Shown here one piece after another: positions 1 to 48,621 of a stretch of DNA of 64,000 nt. The position numbers and the translations under genes were made by a program. Within the stretch, counting starts at the first letter, position 1, and the number at the start of each line of letters is the position of its first letter. Origin of the DNA: Ostreococcus lucimarinus (lineage: Eukaryota); the NCBI GenBank assembly GCA_000092065.1, contig CP000589.1; one strand, written 5' to 3'. The notes beneath the pieces are model-generated. The model was not told the origin of the DNA, did no database searches, and was given only the letters and a program-made list of their open reading frames with translations.

Positions 1-1118
1 TCGTCGGCGTCGTTCCCGGACGCCGGCCATAGAAATAAAACCTTGTCGTTGTGGCTCGCGCACAGAGTCGCGAGCATCGTCTTACACGAACTCAGCGCCA
101 GTCGCACGCCCGCTCGTTCGATACCTCGCGCGTCGCACGCCAAAGTTTTCTGTTCAAACCGCGCGACTTTTTCGTATCCGTCTCCGCGCTGAGACTCGCG
201 GAAAATTCTCGTCGATGCCGTCGCGTCGCACGTCAGCGGGTGCGTGAGCGCGCGCGTGATCCGCCAAGTCAATTCATCGATCCATAAAAGGGCCTCGTTC
301 GACACGCACGTGACGATGAGACGTCCATCCTTCGCCCGAACGCTCGGCGCCGACGCGCCTCGAATCGTCGCTCGCCGGAGGCCTTCGGCCGAAAAAATCT
401 CCAGCGCCGGTCGCGCCTCCACCGCGCACGAATCGTCATAAATTAGAATCTCCTGCCCCCCTGCGCCGCCAAACTCGATCATCTGCGCATCGAAGCCCGG
501 AGGCAAGCGAAACGAGATCGCGCCTTCGTACGGCGCCGTCGCCGAGAACACCTCCACGCGTTCGCGCGCTTCGTCGTCGCGCGTCACGAACGCCATCCAC
601 CGTCCATCTCGCGACCGCGCGTGCGCGCTAAATCTGGAGCTACTCTTCCTCGCGTGCGCGATTCGAACGAAGTCGAATCCGTCTCGGTCGTCGAGCATCG
701 TCGTCGACGCGTCGCCGTCGCCGGCGAACGCGAGCGCGCCGTCGCCCGCGCGGAACGCCCGCGAGCACGCCCCGATGCCGCGCGCGACGCGCTCGAGCGT
801 CAACCCGCGGTCGTCGACGGTGACGACGCACGCGGTGCCGTCGTCGAGGACCACCGCGCAGACGTCGCGCGTCGCGTGCCAAGCGACAGACGCGATTGTG
901 CTTTCAAACTGTATCGCCTTCCCGACGCGTTCGTCGACGCGCGCGGCGCGCCGGAGCGTCAGATGGACGCCATCGCGCACGAGCGCGCGCGTGCGGTCGG
1001 GGCTGAGCGCGACGGAGCCGCGAAGATCGCGGTCGTCGAGCGCGAGGGCGGGCATGCTGTGCGGCTGGCGCCGGCGCGCGTCGCGCCGGCAGTCGGTGGC
1101 GCGGTCTATCTCTCGCAT
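1..1118 (-). CDS. Partial CDS; its C-terminus lies beyond the window start. Hypothetical protein, possibly beta-propeller/WD-like
   Basis: Hand translation of the minus strand finds an open frame from ATG at 1118..1116 (a second ATG at 1056) down through position 1 with no stop, over 370 codons. Composition is protein-like with hydrophobic cores (ILIYDDS, LIVTCVSNEALLWIDELTW, KVLFLWP). It is absent from the ORF track because there is no stop inside the window. No family recognised. Confidence 0.45.
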   Translation of the reverse strand, partial: MREIDRATDCRRDARRRQPHSMPALALDDRDLRGSVALSPDRTRALVRDGVHLTLRRAARVDERVGKAIQFESTIASVAWHATRDVCAVVLDDGTACVVTVDDRGLTLERVARGIGACSRAFRAGDGALAFAGDGDASTTMLDDRDGFDFVRIAHARKSSSRFSAHARSRDGRWMAFVTRDDEARERVEVFSATAPYEGAISFRLPPGFDAQMIEFGGAGGQEILIYDDSCAVEARPALEIFSAEGLRRATIRGASAPSVRAKDGRLIVTCVSNEALLWIDELTWRITRALTHPLTCDATASTRIFRESQRGDGYEKVARFEQKTLACDARGIERAGVRLALSSCKTMLATLCASHNDKVLFLWPASGNDAD

Positions 1119-1178
1119 AAAACTACGGCGCGGCGCCGCGCGGGAGCTATGTCTAATAACACTGGCTGCGTCGATCAC

Positions 1179-2225
1179 TCAGACGTTGCCGTCGGCCTGG
1201 ACGCCGTCGTAGGAGACTCTGTACGCCGGGAATTGGCTGGCGTCGATGACGCCGCAACCGATGTCTCGCACAGTGACGTTCAAGCGACCGTTGAGCATTT
1301 TCCCACGCAAGTGACCGGGCATCGATCCCGGGTACACGTTTAACACGCTGTGCACGATCATGCGCGAAGGGCCGCCGAAGAGCAAGACGTCGCCCGAGTT
1401 CAGGCGCACGACTTTGTGCTCGGGATCGTCAAACGAATATTTGTACCCAAAGTCGCCGCTCAGCCCTACGGAGAAACTCACGATGGGCGGACCCGTGCGC
1501 GATTTTACGAGCTTTGGATCTTCACTATCTTTGTGCCACTTGAACTCGGCGCCGTCTTTGTAAAAGTTTACCAGGCACGTCGTCGGGTTCATGTTTGTCG
1601 GCATCTCGGCGTCCGCGGCGCACGCCGCCGCCACCGCGTCCTCGCACATCTGCGTCAAAATCCCGTCTGGAAACGCATCGGGTTCGAGGATCATCCGCCC
1701 ACGACTACCTTGATTCAGCTTGAACGTCCCATCTCCCATCTTCGCGAAGAAACCTTGCCCGCGCGCGGCGTCGTCGGATCCTGATTCGCCGAGCGCGAAC
1801 GATTCGCTCGCCAACCACATTTGCGCCTCCACGCTCAAAAACTTCCTCAAGCACACCAATCCTGGTCCGAGACGCTCCGTCTTAAATCCGTGCGGCTTTT
1901 TCTCTCGTTCACGCGTCGATTTCACCGCCGCGTCGTCGTCTAAATCCCGTCCGACGCACTCTCGCAGCCGCCTCCGGTCCAACGCCGACGGCGTCGTCGC
2001 GATCACCTCTCGCGCCGTCGCCCTCGTCACCCCCCCCGTCCGCGCGCACTCCACCAATACTTTCGCGAACTCCGACGTCGTCACCTCCCGGCGCTGAAAC
2101 GCCCGCGCGTGCGCGCGCAGCGCGTCGTACGCTTTCTTCGCCAGCTGTCCCCGCAACGCCTTCGCGAGCTTCTGACACCGCCCTCTGGCGCCTTCGCCGC
2201 CCGTCGCGTCTCGCGCGTCGTCCAT
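1179..2225 (-). CDS. AlkB-family 2OG-Fe(II) dioxygenase (nucleic-acid demethylase-like)
   Basis: The C-terminal ~200 aa of ORF 1179..3095 carry a double-stranded beta-helix with the WHKDSED...H iron-binding pattern (GPPIVSFSVGLS...HSVLNV...RLNVTVR). Start taken at MDDARD, ATG 2225..2223; the longer upstream ORF is GC read-through that overlaps the SNARE gene. Confidence 0.7.
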   Translation of the reverse strand: MDDARDATGGEGARGRCQKLAKALRGQLAKKAYDALRAHARAFQRREVTTSEFAKVLVECARTGGVTRATAREVIATTPSALDRRRLRECVGRDLDDDAAVKSTREREKKPHGFKTERLGPGLVCLRKFLSVEAQMWLASESFALGESGSDDAARGQGFFAKMGDGTFKLNQGSRGRMILEPDAFPDGILTQMCEDAVAAACAADAEMPTNMNPTTCLVNFYKDGAEFKWHKDSEDPKLVKSRTGPPIVSFSVGLSGDFGYKYSFDDPEHKVVRLNSGDVLLFGGPSRMIVHSVLNVYPGSMPGHLRGKMLNGRLNVTVRDIGCGVIDASQFPAYRVSYDGVQADGNV

Positions 2226-2330
2226 CGCGGTGTCGTCCGCGCCTCGACCGCGCGCGCGTCGACGCTCGACGCCCGCGCGCGCCGCTCTGTCGCCATTCGT
2301 CGACGCATCGCGTCGCGTCGCCGCATCGTC

Positions 2331-3029
2331 ATGACGGACGCGCGTCGCTACGACCGCGCGAACGACCCGTACTACGTCGTGCGCGACGAGATCGCGCGCC
2401 ACGTCGACGACCTCGCGCGCCGCGCGCGGAGCGGCGCCGCGAGCGCGACGGTAAGCGCGGCGCTCGAGCGAGACATCGAGAGCGCGCGCTGGGAGCTCGA
2501 CGAACTCGACCGCGCGATCGCGGTCGCGGAGCGCGAGAGCGCGCGGTACAAGCTCGACGCGCGCGAGATCGACGAAAGGAAACGGTGGAGCGCGCGGGCG
2601 CGCGAGGCGGTGGACGAAGCGATGGCGACGACGCGCGCGAGGGCTCGAGCGGGACGCGCGAACGGGGACGGCGACGGCGACGCGAACGGGACGACGACGC
2701 GAACGGCGGGAGACGCGGGCGTCGGTGAGGCGGGATTCGACGATCATCAACAGTTGCTCGTGCGAAGGCAAGACGAGGATCTGGACGACATATCGGCGAG
2801 CATAACGCGCATCGGACAAGTCGGTTTGACCATCGGCGAGGAGCTCGCGTCGCAGTCGAAAATGTTGGAGGACTTGGACGAAGACGTCGACGGCGTCAAC
2901 GCGAGGTTGGCGGCGGCGGAGCGAAAGATGCGAGATGTTTTGAAAAAGGTCGGTCTGCGCGGACAGCTTTGCGTGATTTTCTTCTTGACCGTCGTGTTGT
3001 TCGTCTTGTTCGCGATCGCGTTTCAGTGA
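2331..3029 (+). CDS. Qc-SNARE (syntaxin-6/8, SYP5/6-like t-SNARE)
   Basis: C-terminal SNARE coiled-coil motif (ITRIGQVGLTIGEELASQSKMLEDLDEDVDGVNARLAAAERKMRDVLKK) followed by a transmembrane anchor (LCVIFFLTVVLFVLFAIAF). ATG at 2331 (MTDARRYDRANDPYYVVRDEI). Confidence 0.7.
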   Translation: MTDARRYDRANDPYYVVRDEIARHVDDLARRARSGAASATVSAALERDIESARWELDELDRAIAVAERESARYKLDAREIDERKRWSARAREAVDEAMATTRARARAGRANGDGDGDANGTTTRTAGDAGVGEAGFDDHQQLLVRRQDEDLDDISASITRIGQVGLTIGEELASQSKMLEDLDEDVDGVNARLAAAERKMRDVLKKVGLRGQLCVIFFLTVVLFVLFAIAFQ

Positions 3030-3148
3030 CGCACGCGGCGTCGGCGCGTCGCGGTTCGCTAGTCTAATACTTGCAATATTGTACTGTACAAACACTTCCT
3101 TCGTCTTCGTCCTCTCTAATCGTCGCCGCGCGCGCTAACATCGTTTAT

Positions 3149-4013: not shown

Positions 4014-5090
4014 ATGACGGACGTCGAGCTCAAGGCGTCGCGCGCGCTCGAGGCCGCGCGCGCGTTCCTCGCGCGCTCGCCCGCGAGCGCGCGCGCGCCG
4101 AGCGCGACGACGCGCGCGAGGAACGCGCTGAATGTGAATCTCGACGCGACGTTTTCCGCGGCGACGAGCGACGACGCGAGGACGGACGCGGACGCGGCGA
4201 CGACGGGACGCGCGCCGGAGACGCCCGCGTCGGTGGCGTTGGAGCTGTCGAGCGAGAGCGACGACGACGACGACGCGGCGACGGGCGGCGACGACGCGCG
4301 GGAGAGAGGCGAGGAAGGGCGACGGGTGAGGCTCGAAGTGGACGAAGACGAGGACGTCGACGACGGCGCGCGCGATGGTGGGGAATCGGACTCCGAGGGC
4401 GTGTTCGCGGTGGCGATCAAACGCGAGCGAGACGAGGCGGAGGCGGAGGCGGAGGCGGAGGCGGAGGCGGAGGCGGAGGCGGAGGCGGAGGCGGAAACCG
4501 GCGGCGAGGCGGAGGCGAACGCCGAGACCGCGGCGGCGTTGCGAGCGAATATCGACGCGTTGCGCGAAGAGTTGGAAGAGTCGAGATGGGCGCGCGAGGC
4601 GCTGGAGACGCGCGTGCAGGAGGCGGAGAAGATCGCCGCCGAGGCGCGCTCGAAGACAATCGAGAGCGCGTTGGATCCGCAAAACCAGTTGACGAACGAG
4701 CAAGTGGCCGCGCTCAGGGCGGAGATCGAACAAGTGGAGTATTTGAAACGTTTACTCGCGCGCGCGGAGCAGATGCGTAACGTCGCGCGCGCGGAGACGA
4801 AACAGGCGCGCGACAAACACGAGAGCGATTTGGAAATCGTTCGCAAGGAAGTCGCCGTCATGGACGCCGAGATGGAAAATTTACGGCGGCGCGTGAAAAA
4901 GGACAAAGCGAAAATTGAGGCGATGGAACGCACGACCATCGAGGCCGCGGATGAATTCGCGACGCTGTACTCGCGACAAGAGAACACCAGACGTCTCCTC
5001 GGCGCGTGCATCGTCGCCATCCTCGCCCTCGTCGTGCGCCTCGGTCTATCGGGGCAAACTTTCATGATGAAAAACATGTATCAGTACTGA
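4014..5090 (+). CDS. Coiled-coil, tail-anchored membrane protein with an (EA)10 repeat
   Basis: ATG at 4014 (MTDVELKAS). Acidic region, then (EA)10, then a long coiled coil (LRANIDALREELEESRWAREALETRVQEAEK...), then a C-terminal TM (LLGACIVAILALVVRLGLSG). The start sits 83 nt from the LplA-like gene on the other strand. Confidence 0.5.
   Translation: MTDVELKASRALEAARAFLARSPASARAPSATTRARNALNVNLDATFSAATSDDARTDADAATTGRAPETPASVALELSSESDDDDDAATGGDDARERGEEGRRVRLEVDEDEDVDDGARDGGESDSEGVFAVAIKRERDEAEAEAEAEAEAEAEAEAEAETGGEAEANAETAAALRANIDALREELEESRWAREALETRVQEAEKIAAEARSKTIESALDPQNQLTNEQVAALRAEIEQVEYLKRLLARAEQMRNVARAETKQARDKHESDLEIVRKEVAVMDAEMENLRRRVKKDKAKIEAMERTTIEAADEFATLYSRQENTRRLLGACIVAILALVVRLGLSGQTFMMKNMYQY
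4432..4494 (+). repeat. Hexanucleotide microsatellite (GAGGCG)n encoding (EA)n
   Basis: gaggcggaggcggaggcg... seen directly in the sequence. Read in other frames it gives the poly-Gly and poly-Pro artefact ORFs in the track. Confidence 0.9.
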
Positions 5091-5580: not shown

Positions 5581-7224
5581 TCACGGCGCCGCCGAGGTCG
5601 CGTTGGAGACGCCTAAAGGCTGGACTTCAGCTATCGGGCCTTCGCGAATGAACGCGGCCCAGTAATCGGGCATGAGAAGGGCAAGAATGTGCGGCTCGGT
5701 GTCGCGCTCTAACGCGACCTCGAGCGTCAAGACGTCTTCGAGGAGCTTCTCGAGAGATTTGCTCACCTTGGAAAACATCGGACCGAGAGTCTGCGCGGCG
5801 CGAGAAGCGTCCGCGGGAGAAAGCCAAAGATGTTCGCGCAAAGCGGGGAGAGAACCCCCTTGAGCGCCTCGCAAGGAGTTGAGTTGTGCTGTGAGTACAC
5901 CGCGCAAATTTTTCGCTTCGCTGAGCAATCGCGCGCACTCTTCGGCGTCGCCGTCGGCGCGGCAGGCGCGGCCGAACAAGCCCGCTAATAAATACTGCAC
6001 CTGTTTCGTCCCACGATCCTGCGCGAGACGCTCTAAAATCCAATCTTTGATCATCATTGCCTCATTCGGGCGCTGCCACAACACGTTCACGAGCAACAAG
6101 GTGTCGAATTCGCTCACCTCGTCGCGGTTGTTCGTGTACGCCGCGACGCGCAACATTTGCACCGCCTTGAGCAAGCGACGATCGGAAACGTACACCGGCG
6201 GCTCACACTTGTCTTGCAAAAACGTTCGTAAGTCAGTGATCAGCTCGATGACGTTCGTCGGTACCTCGGTCTCCGCCGCGGCTTCGTATCGAATGTTCGC
6301 AAAGTCCTCCGGCTTGAGTCGGGTGTCGCTCGTCGAGACGCCGCCGTGATCGTTCGCCTTGGACCCGATCGCCGCCTCGCCGCCGAGAGATAGCAACTTC
6401 CCGAGCCCACCGGCGGATACTTGTTCGACGCTCGATCGCAATAAAAATCGATCGTACAGCGCGTCCAACTCCTCGCTCTCCGGTAATTCATTCGAAGCGC
6501 CGACCAAGCACAACAGCGGCACGTCGACGCGTTCGCTCCCGTTATCAAACAACCTCTCGTTCAATATCGTCAACAGCGAGTTCAAGATGGCTGAATTCGC
6601 CTTAAAAATTTCATCCACAAACGCCACGTTGGCGCTGGGCAGATATCCATCAATCTTCCGCACGTACTCATCGTTTTCCAGCCCCTTCATGCTCAGCGGT
6701 CCAAACAACTCCTCCGGCACCGAAAACCGCGTGAGCAATCGTTCAAAAAATTGCCCTCCCTCGCACAGCGCGCTCAGCCGGCGTCCAAGTTCGCTCTTCG
6801 CCGTCCCAGGCGGTCCGAGCAACAGCAAGTGTTCTCCGCAGCACGCCGCCAGCAGCAACAACCGCGTCTCCGTCTCGCGTTCCACCAAACCTCGCTCCAG
6901 CGCCGTCGTCGCCGCCGCGATCTTCCTCGACAGTTCCTCCCTCCGCGCGCTCGACGACGCCATCCCGTCCTTTGCGTGCGCGTCCGCGTCGACGTCGGTC
7001 TCTCCGCTCACGATCGGCGCCATGCGCTCGCGCACGCGCTCGCGCACCGCGCGCTCCTCGGCCGATATCTGCGCATCCTGCTCGCGCTGTCGCCGCTTCC
7101 ACTCCGGCTCGTCCGCGTCCGCGGCGCGCGCGATCGCGCGACCGCGCGGTCGGACCTCGCGTCGGTCGCGCGCGCGCGCCGGGATCGCGCCGACGCGCGA
7201 CGCGCGCGCCATCGCGAGCGCCAT
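5581..7224 (-). CDS. RavA/MoxR-type AAA+ ATPase
   Basis: LLLGPPGTAKSELGRRLS...FERLLTRFSVPEELFGPLSMKGLEND...YLPSANVAFVDEIFKANSAILNSLLTILNERLFDNGSERVDVPLLCLVGASNELPESEELDALYDRFLLR is near-collinear with E. coli RavA, including PPVYVSDRRLLKAVQMLRVAAY. Start set at MALAMARAS (ATG 7224..7222); the upstream ORF extension overlaps the divergent PsbP gene. Confidence 0.75.
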   Translation of the reverse strand: MALAMARASRVGAIPARARDRREVRPRGRAIARAADADEPEWKRRQREQDAQISAEERAVRERVRERMAPIVSGETDVDADAHAKDGMASSSARREELSRKIAAATTALERGLVERETETRLLLLAACCGEHLLLLGPPGTAKSELGRRLSALCEGGQFFERLLTRFSVPEELFGPLSMKGLENDEYVRKIDGYLPSANVAFVDEIFKANSAILNSLLTILNERLFDNGSERVDVPLLCLVGASNELPESEELDALYDRFLLRSSVEQVSAGGLGKLLSLGGEAAIGSKANDHGGVSTSDTRLKPEDFANIRYEAAAETEVPTNVIELITDLRTFLQDKCEPPVYVSDRRLLKAVQMLRVAAYTNNRDEVSEFDTLLLVNVLWQRPNEAMMIKDWILERLAQDRGTKQVQYLLAGLFGRACRADGDAEECARLLSEAKNLRGVLTAQLNSLRGAQGGSLPALREHLWLSPADASRAAQTLGPMFSKVSKSLEKLLEDVLTLEVALERDTEPHILALLMPDYWAAFIREGPIAEVQPLGVSNATSAAP

Positions 7225-16166: not shown

Positions 16167-16919
16167 CTAATGGATGCGCAAATCGCGGCGTAGCAAGACG
16201 CGGGCGGGACGGCCGAGCGACGACTCGGCGCCGGCGGTTTCTTGCGCTTCGCGGATGAAATCTGAACGTTCGTAAAGAGCGATCGCGGCGTCGTTGTCGT
16301 GCTGGACGTGGACGTACAGCGTGTGCACGGCGTATTCGTCCCTCGCGATGATGGACGCGCGCTCTATCATGCGCGAGGCAACACCGGTCCGTCTCGCGGC
16401 GGGCGCCACGCCGACGTTTGATAAATACGCGCGTCTTCCGAGCGAGCGCGTTCCAGCGAGTTCTTCCGCCGGTAAACGATCGCCGATGTTAATGTCTAAC
16501 GAACCGACGATCAAAGACGTCTCGGCGCCGTCGCGCACGCTCAACGATGCCGGATCGAACTCTCGTATGTCGTACTGCGCCGACGACGCGGGCGCTCGAG
16601 CGACGATGAGCACCACTTTCACGTTCTCGTAACCGACCTCAGCGCCGCACAGCTTGTTCGTCAGCGACGTGGTTTCGTTCTCAATCTTCATCGCGACGTG
16701 CGCGCGCTTGGCGAACGCGCTTCGGTCGCTCGGGACGTTTTGGCTGAAACTGAGCGCTCGACACGCCGCGGCGCCTACGACGTCGCTCGCGTGCGAGGAG
16801 ACGTCGATGGTAATCGCGGAGCACGATGGGCTCGTCGTAGCGCGCGAACATTGTCGAGCGCGCGCGCGGGTGAAGACGGGCGAGACGCCGCGCGACGGCG
16901 CGACGACGGAGGACGCCAT
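16167..16919 (-). CDS. GNAT-family N-acetyltransferase, organelle-targeted
   Basis: Acetyl-CoA binding motif A (YLSNVGVAPAARRTGVASRMIERA) and the GNAT fold pattern; S/T/R-rich N-terminal presequence. Confidence 0.65.
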   Translation of the reverse strand: MASSVVAPSRGVSPVFTRARARQCSRATTSPSCSAITIDVSSHASDVVGAAACRALSFSQNVPSDRSAFAKRAHVAMKIENETTSLTNKLCGAEVGYENVKVVLIVARAPASSAQYDIREFDPASLSVRDGAETSLIVGSLDINIGDRLPAEELAGTRSLGRRAYLSNVGVAPAARRTGVASRMIERASIIARDEYAVHTLYVHVQHDNDAAIALYERSDFIREAQETAGAESSLGRPARVLLRRDLRIH

Positions 16920-16962
16920 GCAGTGCAGTGCGGCGACGCGCTGGGCGATTTACAAGTCTAAG

Positions 16963-18354
16963 TCATCGACGCGTAGCGTTCCACGACGTTTCGCCGGTCT
17001 TAGCGTTGTAGTAATATGTTTTTCCCTCTGGAGTTTGCGCCGTCATCCAATCGCTCGGTGGCGCGGAGTACGCGTCGGGGTAGTATTGCGCGCCGGGCGC
17101 CGACGTCGGGGCGTCGAACGCCGCGGAACCGGCGGCGGAGGACGGATGCGCGAAGGGCAGAGGTGGCAACGTGACGTACGATGTTCCTTGCGTAGAATGC
17201 ATCGCATCGCGCTGCTGTGGCGGCGCCGGTGATGTGTATCCTTGGACTTCGATCTGAATGTTTGACGGGTCGGCAAAGCGATGGGGCGGCGTTCGCTCTG
17301 GCGCTAACGGTCGAGAAGCGGATGGGGGTGTCGCGGCTTGCGCAAACCCTTGCCGCAATTGCTCCGTCGTTGACGCTTGCCCAGTCGAGGTCGACGTGCG
17401 CTCGCGCATGGCTTTCTGTAAAGCTTCGAGCCATTGCGATCGCTCGCGCTCGGAATCGGCGACGAGATACTTTGTCCCGATTCTCGCCGGTAGAGCGCCT
17501 TCGAGATGGATCGCGTAAGGCTTGCCAGCCGCCGCCTCTGACGCGACGGACACACTGTCGATGGATTCTATCGGGATCTCTCCTCGAGTCACCGCGCGCT
17601 CGTTCACGACGTTGGTCTTGAACCACACCAAATGTCCTTGCTTCAACACGAACCATCGCTTGCGCCACGTTCGCAACATCTCTCCTTGCTTCGTGAGCCA
17701 TCCCGAGTACTCAGGGGTCTCCCAGAATCGAATCCCCGCGGCCGAAGACGTTGCCGTCGCGCCTGATCCCACCGTCGTCGCCTTGAGATTCATCCAATCC
17801 GATCCGCTTGACACTATGGTGTCCATCGCGTCCAAACCGTTCAACTCGCACCACTGAAAAGCCGACGTCGTCAACACATCCACGAGCGCCGCGATCGTCT
17901 TTACATCTGCGCTCAACGCTAACGACGTCTCGCCTGTGCCTTCTTTCGCGTGTATGCTCAAAATCGTCGGATCCGTCATCGACCATTTCGCTATTCTCGG
18001 CAGCTCGAACGCTCGTCTGGCTTTCGTCTCGTCGCCAACCGCGAAGCACTTCACCCCATCCAGCCCGACTTGCGCGATGACGTCTTCTATGTCGTCCCCG
18101 TCGTTCACCGGAAGTGTCATGCATCGATAACGCACGTTCCCAGCGGGTGCACCGGGAATTTCTCCCGCCTGCGCGTCGCGCGGTCCGCTCGCGTCTCGCG
18201 GCGTCCCGTCGCTCCTCGCGCCGGCACCGTTCTGTCCATCGTACGCCCCTTGCATCACCGCGCTCCCGTGCGAACTCGGCGTGAGTGTCACGTACGATGT
18301 TGTCGGGTACCTCACCGGCGTCGACGCGTACGGGTCGGTGTTATACGGGTCCAT
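16963..18354 (-). CDS. PH-domain plus WW-domain protein
   Basis: PH domain (GWLTKQGEMLRTWRKRWFVLKQGHLVWFK...SQWLEALQKA) and a C-terminal WW domain (DWMTAQTPEGKTYYYNAKTGETSWN). Confidence 0.7.
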   Translation of the reverse strand: MDPYNTDPYASTPVRYPTTSYVTLTPSSHGSAVMQGAYDGQNGAGARSDGTPRDASGPRDAQAGEIPGAPAGNVRYRCMTLPVNDGDDIEDVIAQVGLDGVKCFAVGDETKARRAFELPRIAKWSMTDPTILSIHAKEGTGETSLALSADVKTIAALVDVLTTSAFQWCELNGLDAMDTIVSSGSDWMNLKATTVGSGATATSSAAGIRFWETPEYSGWLTKQGEMLRTWRKRWFVLKQGHLVWFKTNVVNERAVTRGEIPIESIDSVSVASEAAAGKPYAIHLEGALPARIGTKYLVADSERERSQWLEALQKAMRERTSTSTGQASTTEQLRQGFAQAATPPSASRPLAPERTPPHRFADPSNIQIEVQGYTSPAPPQQRDAMHSTQGTSYVTLPPLPFAHPSSAAGSAAFDAPTSAPGAQYYPDAYSAPPSDWMTAQTPEGKTYYYNAKTGETSWNATRR

Positions 18355-46998: not shown

Positions 46999-47748
46999 AT
47001 GGCGAGCGAGAGCAGCGAGAGCGAGGACGACGGGTTGCGACGACGGGCGCTCGCGGTGGACGGCGAACCGGACTATTCCACCGGGCCGCCCATGGATGGT
47101 TTTGAGTATCTCAGGCGGGTGGCGTTCGAGGCGAGACAAACACCGGACATCATGCGGGCGGAAAATATGGATTTGACCGCTCTGGAGGAAGAGACGGCGA
47201 CGAGCGGCGGCGTAACGGCGGACGAGGAGACCGAGTTCGCGCCGCCGGCGTGGGCGAAACCCGATCGCGCGTGGGTGAGAAGGACGGTGGGTGATTTTAG
47301 TGATTTGAGGGTACGATTATCACGGATATTAGCGCGCTTTCCGACAAGCGTGAGACGCGGATCCTATCCATCGAACGCCGATAAACGCGACTGGGAAAGA
47401 TTTTGCGTTGACGTTCGCGAGCCTCCACTCGGGGCCCTCGTCGCCATGGACGCCGTGACGTGTGCGTATTTACTACGACATATCTCACGCGGATTGTTCA
47501 GATACGACTACGACAGCGACGGCGTGGATGTCGACGACGTCATCAGACGTTTGCGGTGGTTTCACGCCCTCGTCGCGCGCGTCGATCTTCCGCTAGATGC
47601 CGACACCGAAGCGTCGATACGATCGGCGATGAAAGGTGTGGCTCGAGGTAGGCTGTCGACTTCATCTGAGGACGACGAGCTGCTGCCGCACTTGAATTTA
47701 GCCATCGCAATAGGGGGAGGGTATTTCAAACAGTGGCGCGGTGAGTAA
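46999..47748 (+). CDS. Gemin2/SIP1-like protein (SMN-complex component)
   Basis: GPPMDGFEYLRRVAFEARQTPDIM matches the Gemin2 N-terminal signature (PPtsgeEYLRRVqfEA), followed by the helical Gemin2 C-terminal region. ATG at 46999 (MASESSESED). Confidence 0.5.
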   Translation: MASESSESEDDGLRRRALAVDGEPDYSTGPPMDGFEYLRRVAFEARQTPDIMRAENMDLTALEEETATSGGVTADEETEFAPPAWAKPDRAWVRRTVGDFSDLRVRLSRILARFPTSVRRGSYPSNADKRDWERFCVDVREPPLGALVAMDAVTCAYLLRHISRGLFRYDYDSDGVDVDDVIRRLRWFHALVARVDLPLDADTEASIRSAMKGVARGRLSTSSEDDELLPHLNLAIAIGGGYFKQWRGE

Positions 47749-47814: not shown

Positions 47815-48621
47815 ATGGAGATTCACGCTACGTCTCCTGATTTACCGTCGATTATTGACGCCGTTCAGCGTGGATCCATCGACGACGTAGACGACGCACT
47901 GCGGCGCGAGACGAGCCGAATCGACGAGACCCATGAGTCAGAAGACGCGCTCATCTTTGCCGTGCGCGGACGCAATTCAGACATGGTGAATCATCTTCTC
48001 GCACGCGGGGCCAATGTTCGTTTTGCCAACGCGCACGGTGATACGGCGCTTCACCTGGCGTGCTTATTGGGCGAGGTAGACATCGTCAAGGCTTTGCTTT
48101 CTTACGGCGCAGAGTTGGAGCGAAGAGGCGCGAGCGCAAATCGCCCGATCCATCTCGCGTGTTCCGGAGGATTTGAAGACGTCGTGACGACTTTGATACT
48201 TCGTGGGTGCTGTGTAAACGCGACAAACGCTAACGGTGCTTTACCGAGCGCGCTTTCACAGAATTTCAAGCACATCAAAGCCATCGTGCGAGGCGTCGAA
48301 CAGGATGGCGAAAAGGCGAGAGAACAGCTGCGGCGTGATGTCGCCGCTAGACTCGCGAATGAAGCCATCAAGAGGCGCGAACGCGAACGTGAACGCGTCG
48401 AAGCGGAGCAACTTCGCGCGCAGGAAGATGCAGAAAAAGCCGCGGAGGCTAATCGCGAGCGCATCGCGTCGGAGCAGCGTCTTGCAGAGGAACGCGACCA
48501 GCTCGCAACAGAGTTGGTCGCGTTGCGCGAGAAGGAAGCGGAGCGATTGAAGTTGGAGGAAAAGAAGCGGGCTAAGAAAGCAAAAGCGGCGGCAAGTAAG
48601 AAGGGCGCGGTAAAAAAGTAG
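47815..48621 (+). CDS. Ankyrin-repeat protein with a C-terminal K/E-rich coiled coil
   Basis: Four ANK repeats (DALIFAVRGRNSDMVNHLLARGANV; HGDTALHLACLLGEVDIVKALLSYGAEL; NRPIHLACSGGFEDVVTTLILRGCCVN...), then a KE-rich helix. Confidence 0.65.
   Translation: MEIHATSPDLPSIIDAVQRGSIDDVDDALRRETSRIDETHESEDALIFAVRGRNSDMVNHLLARGANVRFANAHGDTALHLACLLGEVDIVKALLSYGAELERRGASANRPIHLACSGGFEDVVTTLILRGCCVNATNANGALPSALSQNFKHIKAIVRGVEQDGEKAREQLRRDVAARLANEAIKRRERERERVEAEQLRAQEDAEKAAEANRERIASEQRLAEERDQLATELVALREKEAERLKLEEKKRAKKAKAAASKKGAVKK

Follow-up and report, generated by a model that had tools for sequence, protein, structure and literature searches.

Does the AlkB gene of Ostreococcus lucimarinus continue into the protein-like open reading frame (ORF) that follows it, or are these two separate genes? 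The question is raised by the left end of a stretch of 64,000 nucleotides (nt) of O. lucimarinus DNA (contig CP000589.1, assembly GCA_000092065.1), the whole of which is called the window below. On the minus strand, the AlkB stop codon TGA (1181..1179) is followed by 20 sense codons and then by an in-frame ATG at 1118..1116, from which the frame stays open for 372 codons up to the left window edge. This description, given in the initial annotation, was reproduced when the sequence was re-read. The same annotation placed the start of the downstream gene at ATG 1118, 60 nt past the stop, considered a gap of 60-120 nt too small for both a poly(A) site and a promoter, and hence proposed, among other possibilities, a fusion protein interrupted by a sequencing error or read through at the stop, a small intron spanning the stop, or a polycistronic transcript. 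According to our analysis, the locus very probably consists of two independent genes arranged in tandem on the minus strand, one encoding an AlkB-family protein and the other a WRAP73/WDR8-like beta-propeller, which are separated by a non-coding spacer of 123 nt and share their frame by coincidence. The upstream gene and its end are placed as follows:

1179..2225, minus strand: AlkB-family 2-oxoglutarate (2OG)-Fe(II) dioxygenase gene, 348 codons plus TGA, with its ATG at 2225 (Pfam, database identity and PDB sequence matches)
1179..1181, minus strand: native AlkB stop codon TGA (two independent assemblies and the stop position in orthologous loci)

The assignment of the upstream gene to the AlkB-family 2OG-Fe(II) dioxygenases is read from the sequence of its product, in which the domain score and both expected motifs agree. 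The predicted protein matches the Pfam family 2OG-FeII_Oxy_2 (PF13532) with 139.8 bits (E=1.6e-40, for a cut-off of 31.2), the profile being covered from end to end (1-194/194). Its translation contains WHKDSED (H-x-D), MIVHSV (H) and RLNVTVR (R-x5-R), which we take, from general knowledge of AlkB proteins, to be the iron-binding HxD...H triad and the pair of arginines binding 2-oxoglutarate. Among PDB sequences it matches E. coli AlkB and the rice 2OG-Fe oxygenase 5xeg. Hence it resembles the AlkB and ALKBH dioxygenases in its full-length PF13532 match and in the visible HxD...H and RxxxxxR motifs, but differs from E. coli AlkB in carrying an additional N-terminal extension of ~120 amino acids (aa). 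All of its residues (348/348) are identical to XP_001419853.1 (= ABO98146.1 = UniRef100_A4S344 = P0135), named "predicted protein [Ostreococcus lucimarinus CCE9901]". The reference annotation thus holds a stand-alone protein of 348 aa ending at TGA 1181..1179, and the window represents nuclear DNA of this green picoalga.

This stop is reproduced outside the reference assembly. An independent metagenome assembly (locus L004), 99.25% identical over 2.4 kb, has the same TGA and the same spacer, and the Logan assembly of run SRR1179203 (locus L019) shows no mismatch to the window across 3300 nt. The base calls at 1179..1181, which the initial annotation had held in doubt, are therefore confirmed by both. 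In addition, the predicted AlkB translation, whose C-terminal peptide is ...VSYDGVQADGNV, has the same end point (..EGNV*) as those of four diverged orthologous loci, the stop codon being either TGA or TAA. AlkB homologues that have unrelated downstream neighbours or come from other phyla (P0076, P0077, Cymbomonas P0091 and Balamuthia P0098) end 5-10 residues past the FP.YRVSY motif. Because homologues without a propeller neighbour also end there, TGA 1181..1179 is best read as the native end of the AlkB family. A propeller is absent from all 53 AlkB homologues. One longer homologue, P0081 (563 aa, from a 1846-nt contig in ENA), was considered as an AlkB fusion and rejected: its extension is N-terminal and unrelated, and starts with MCIRDR, which is presumably a translated Nextera adapter. 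It is probably a chimeric metagenome contig and has no bearing on a C-terminal fusion.

The orthologous loci were then compared over the region between the two genes. The order LplA - SNARE - AlkB - propeller - (EBP) - DUF1499 - PRMT is kept in diverged Ostreococcus-like lineages, and this block of synteny has been lost from a more distant lineage, in which AlkB shows 49% identity. The features of the downstream half of the locus are the following:

1056..1178, minus strand: non-coding spacer, 123 nt, 68% GC (comparison of orthologous spacers)
1116..1118, minus strand: non-conserved in-frame ATG, the earlier proposed start (AGG in L003)
1053..1055, minus strand: conserved initiator ATG of the propeller gene (family alignments; first in-frame ATG in the other lineages)
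1..1055, minus strand: first 351 codons of the 446-codon WRAP73/WDR8-like propeller gene, which continues past the left window edge

From the AlkB stop to the propeller ATG, the distance is 126 nt in O. lucimarinus and 131, 152, 134 and 142 nt in the orthologous loci L003, L001, L014 and L016, respectively. As a consequence, the frame offset (modulo 3) is 0 in O. lucimarinus only, and 2, 2, 2 and 1 in the four others. The spacers themselves measure 128, 149, 131 and 139 nt in the same order, as compared with 123 nt, and these differences are not multiples of three. Further stops in the AlkB frame occur within the spacers of L003, L014 and L016, and the spacer sequence can be aligned only with that of the closest relative, L003. 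Across the five loci, the spacer does not evolve as coding sequence, as illustrated by these length differences and by the replacement of ATG 1118 by AGG. The search for an AlkB-propeller fusion at orthologous loci, which the initial annotation regarded as informative, thus returned none. The shared frame and the stop-free spacer accordingly appear as a chance feature of O. lucimarinus alone.

The same comparison moves the start of the downstream gene. Every full-length member of the propeller family starts, in the alignments, at the residue matching ATG 1055..1053 (MPALALDDRDLRG...). In L003, L001, L014 and L016, no other in-frame ATG lies between the preceding in-frame stop and this conserved one, and L003, the closest orthologous locus, has AGG in place of ATG 1118. 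The base at -3 is A for ATG 1055 and T, a poor context, for ATG 1118. Judging from these sequences, ATG 1118 is probably not the initiator, and the predicted propeller gene starts at ATG 1055, leaving 123 nt (1178..1056) from coding sequence to coding sequence. The start at 60 nt past the stop is thereby replaced. Since the window cuts the gene, the complete O. lucimarinus protein was read from L019, where it has 446 aa. This corrected start may be a useful by-product of the analysis, in comparison with the upstream ATG picked by prokaryote-style gene callers.

Gene calls available for this ORF are heterogeneous. In L019 (3346-4749), a prokaryote-style call taken from the upstream ATG gives 467 aa. 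In the long-read contig of L004 (3475-4882) the call is broken into 164 + 293 aa, a frameshift being probable. On short contigs (e.g., L013:3-1052) the call is 293 aa from an internal methionine, though the frame extends without a stop as far as the contig end.

The initial annotation described the downstream ORF as protein-like with WD-like motifs, and this part is borne out by the predicted structure. An AlphaFold model built from the 13-sequence family alignment is all-beta and confident (pLDDT, the predicted local distance difference test, 79.8; pTM, the predicted template modelling score, 0.82), and Foldseek matches it exclusively to WD-propeller proteins. The model corresponds to a single large WD-type beta-propeller of ~450 aa, whose predicted fold is closer to WRAP73 than to other propellers. 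The best match of the 13-member family profile among PDB sequences is 9qzc_i (E=2e-6), at an identity of only ~14%, in a one-way search. Because of the AlphaFold model and its propeller matches in Foldseek, together with this profile match, the downstream protein is described as a predicted divergent WRAP73/WDR8-like beta-propeller. It is unlike WRAP73/WDR8 in this low sequence identity, in the lack of a Pfam match (no family scores above threshold) and in having detectable relatives only in a handful of Ostreococcus-like lineages. To our knowledge, Ostreococcus has no flagella, and a WRAP73/WDR8-like protein is of some interest in such an alga. Together with its partner Msd1/SSX2IP, WDR8 is known to act in the anchoring of microtubule minus ends in fission yeast, in human cells and in acentrosomal plant cells (PMC4442821, PMC4669408, PMC8211667).

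The propeller ORF is also conserved, although absence of conservation had been named as an observation that would count against it: homologues were found at 81% identity (P0001, 450 aa), 49% (P0003, 445 aa) and down to 34%. The size of the family and the occurrence of fusions were assessed by an exhaustive HMMER profile search of 1.84 billion representative proteins. Only six matches were obtained at E<1e-30, five of them full-length (421-458 aa) and one partial (P0002, 293 aa). None of the six is fused to another domain, and no relatives were detected among these representatives outside a small Ostreococcus-like group. Between Ostreococcus-like lineages the propeller protein is 34-50% identical, compared with 62-66% for AlkB in the same lineages; its sequence thus appears to evolve much faster than that of its neighbour. 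Hence, the comparison delimits two conserved predicted coding sequences separately, each with its own start and its own stop.

As for names, no propeller member (clusters of P0001-P0004) was found with an NCBI or UniRef accession or name, by a word-index search that gave only four proteins per query and missed several members of its own query alignment, whereas the neighbouring AlkB does have such an accession (XP_001419853.1). The propeller gene may be missing from the reference annotation or be modelled differently there. A gene without an informative name in the sources consulted can now be described as divergent WRAP73/WDR8-like.

How unusual is such a configuration? For a 123-nt spacer of the same composition, a given frame is stop-free with a probability of 0.29-0.40; a factor of 1/3 for a shared frame brings this to ~0.10-0.13. 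A second such tandem pair is indeed found in the window, on the plus strand: a SIP1/Gemin2 gene (46999-47748; Pfam E=2.7e-37), ending with TAA at 47746-47748, is followed by an ankyrin-repeat gene (47815-48621) with its ATG at 47815, the 66-nt spacer being stop-free and the frame the same. A tighter tandem pair lies within 16167-18354 on the minus strand, where a PH/WW gene ends at 16963 and the ATG of a GNAT acetyltransferase stands at 16919, with 43 nt between them. Close packing is not restricted to tandem pairs. On its other side, the AlkB gene faces a divergent neighbour across a similarly short region:

2226..2330, no strand assigned: divergent intergenic region, 105 nt, from the AlkB ATG to the ATG of a syntaxin-6-type SNARE gene (2331-3029, plus strand)

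This SNARE gene matches the Pfam families STX6_10_61_N and SNARE and has the same neighbours in L014, L016 and L019. It converges with an LplA-type lipoyl ligase gene, and a near-palindrome, TGTACTGTACA, lies in the spacer between them (3030-3148). Because the two stops are only 119 nt apart, the 3' ends of these genes must abut or overlap.

Overall, the window is 62% G+C and ~80% coding, with a median gap of ~154 nt between neighbours. The gene map used for this baseline relies on self-trained codon log-odds, which replaced a too-strict filter on third-position G+C content (GC3); it chose ATG 1118, and intron-containing genes may be split or missed in it. The premise that both a poly(A) site and a promoter are too much for 60-120 nt does not hold for this genome, as spacers of 43-130 nt are common between the Pfam-supported genes of the window and published averages lie below 200 bp. 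This agrees with earlier work reporting intergenic regions of less than 200 bp on average in Ostreococcus (PMC2367439, PMC2850359), and intergenic distances of 167-211 nt, untranslated regions (UTRs) included, in Micromonas (PMC4815162). In O. tauri, overlapping UTRs cause transcripts assembled from RNA sequencing (RNA-seq) to concatenate (PMC4378021).

How two genes would be expressed across 123 nt can be proposed from the composition of the spacer, within which one element was singled out:

1147..1161, minus strand: A+T-rich patch TGTTATTAGACATAG, 18-32 nt past the AlkB stop (3'-flank composition; candidate signal)

In the window, A+T makes up ~50% of the 3' flanks of predicted genes, compared with 38% overall, and the words TTAGA, TAGAT and TGTAA are enriched in these flanks. 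This enrichment mostly reflects A+T richness, only TAGAT and TTAGA coming near significance after correction for multiple testing. ATTAG is present in four of the five orthologous AlkB-propeller spacers, and TGTAA occurs 11 nt past the stop of the PH/WW gene mentioned above. The patch TGTTATTAGACATAG is therefore put forward as a plausible candidate signal for AlkB 3'-end formation, and ATTAG-like, TTAGA, TAGAT and TGTAA words, as a lead only, as a candidate Ostreococcus signal for this process. An Rfam search of the spacer gave no match, and RNA folding of the spacer revealed nothing unusual (z=0.28).

In the two-gene arrangement, each protein would be translated from its own start codon, with AlkB terminating at its native TGA. 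The AlkB and propeller genes would be separate transcription units, tightly abutting or overlapping. Formation of the AlkB 3' end would probably proceed via the A+T-rich patch just past the stop. The propeller gene would probably have a very short 5' leader, its core promoter lying within the spacer, overlapping the AlkB 3' end, or both. The remaining ~90 nt of G+C-rich spacer, possibly together with the AlkB 3' end, would carry the propeller start site and this leader. The most likely arrangement is thus one of transcription units that are closely packed or overlap, or of a propeller promoter at or inside the AlkB 3' end; overlapping transcripts and a promoter within AlkB had already been among the possibilities raised for this locus.

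Some points weigh against the two-gene interpretation. We infer where the AlkB poly(A) site and the propeller transcription start lie, and likewise that no read-through or bicistronic mRNA is made. The baseline gene map is a crude codon-bias map, with Pfam confirmation for only some of the pairs. Besides, the spacer length is fairly constant across lineages (123-149 nt), which could hint at a constrained inter-ORF element; yet its sequence is poorly conserved beyond the closest relative.

This constancy of length also counts in favour of the main alternative, a bicistronic mRNA as in other green algae, on which ribosomes would reach the second ORF by leaky scanning or reinitiation. The two genes form a conserved colinear pair separated by a short inter-ORF distance, chlorophytes are known to have polycistronic loci, a search for candidate colinear pairs having included O. 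lucimarinus itself (PMC7896298), and the concatenated RNA-seq transcripts of O. tauri (PMC4378021) would agree with joint transcription. However, with 348 codons the upstream ORF is long, and a ribosome scanning the mRNA strand from the AlkB start would meet 12 further ATGs before ATG 1055; because of this long upstream ORF and these intervening ATGs, leaky scanning is implausible. Moreover, spacers are equally short in divergent and convergent pairs, hence the short distance is not specific to the AlkB-propeller pair, an A+T-rich patch resembling a 3' flank directly follows the AlkB stop, and the spacer contains no structured element. Taken together, these points make a bicistronic mRNA improbable. 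The related proposal of a conserved AlkB plus WRAP73-like bicistronic unit, in which a spacer of ~125-150 nt would permit reinitiation or internal entry, is likewise improbable; if true, it would extend green-algal polycistrony to the Mamiellales and to large upstream ORFs.

A small intron removing the stop and the spacer, and so joining AlkB to the propeller either constitutively or in an alternative isoform, is very improbable. Short introns are known in Ostreococcus (PMC2367439), the last AlkB codon is GTN (valine) in all lineages, which places a GT just before the stop, and AG dinucleotides are available in the spacer. However, the conserved valine codon accounts for the GT, and no fused model was found in any data set searched. 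The terminal residues of AlkB, its stop position and the initiator methionine of the propeller, which stands in a good context, are conserved in at least six lineages. Because a conserved AlkB C-terminus and a conserved initiator methionine would not persist in an intron, this suggestion of the initial annotation finds no support.

Finally, the reading that both ORFs encode one AlkB-propeller fusion protein, the TGA either undergoing programmed readthrough or being a sequencing error, can be practically set aside: the shared frame and the 41 stop-free spacer codons of O. lucimarinus would favour it, but two independent assemblies (L004 and L019) have the same TGA, none of the four orthologous loci keeps the shared frame and three of them have extra stops, neither ATG 1118 nor the spacer is conserved as coding sequence, the AlkB family ends natively at the TGA, no fusion was found among the AlkB or propeller homologues, and a configuration with a chance of 0.10-0.13 has a second example in the same window.

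Two other genes of the window may be mentioned in passing. The gene at 4014-5090 (plus strand) contains a long (Glu-Ala)n repeat at ~4375-4700 (EAEAEAEA...), translated in other frames as poly-Arg or poly-Pro/Gly; its product is unmatched in Pfam and resembles a coiled coil with a C-terminal hydrophobic tail. The gene at 5581-7224 (minus strand) encodes a 547-aa AAA+ protein matching the Pfam family bpMoxR ("MoxR domain in the MoxR-vWA-beta-propeller ternary systems") with E=1e-60. This family was described from prokaryotic systems, and this member sits in a eukaryotic alga.

Returning to two independent tandem genes, the locus can be compared with two known systems. It resembles the polycistronic loci of green algae (Chlamydomonas, Chromochloris; PMC7896298) in having colinear ORFs on the same strand at a short distance from each other. 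It is unlike them in that their upstream ORFs are typically small, whereas the AlkB ORF has 348 codons and many internal ATGs. About one third of the green-algal colinear ORF pairs were reported to be in frame, i.e., the chance level, and the authors argued against readthrough from that (PMC7896298). Likewise, an in-frame ORF after a stop is to be expected in about one in ten short tandem spacers of gene-dense eukaryotes, and does not constitute evidence of fusion or readthrough; beyond such annotation hygiene, the importance of the finding is small. The second comparison is with the tandem packing of genes in the Mamiellales (O. tauri, O. lucimarinus and Micromonas), which the locus matches in a spacer near or below 200 nt (its 123 nt being typical both of the window and of published averages), high synteny between species and UTRs that presumably abut or overlap. 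From this packing it shows no difference in kind, its sole peculiarity being a coincidental shared frame without a stop. The AlkB-propeller arrangement is thus ordinary compact-genome packing, of a kind already known in these algae.

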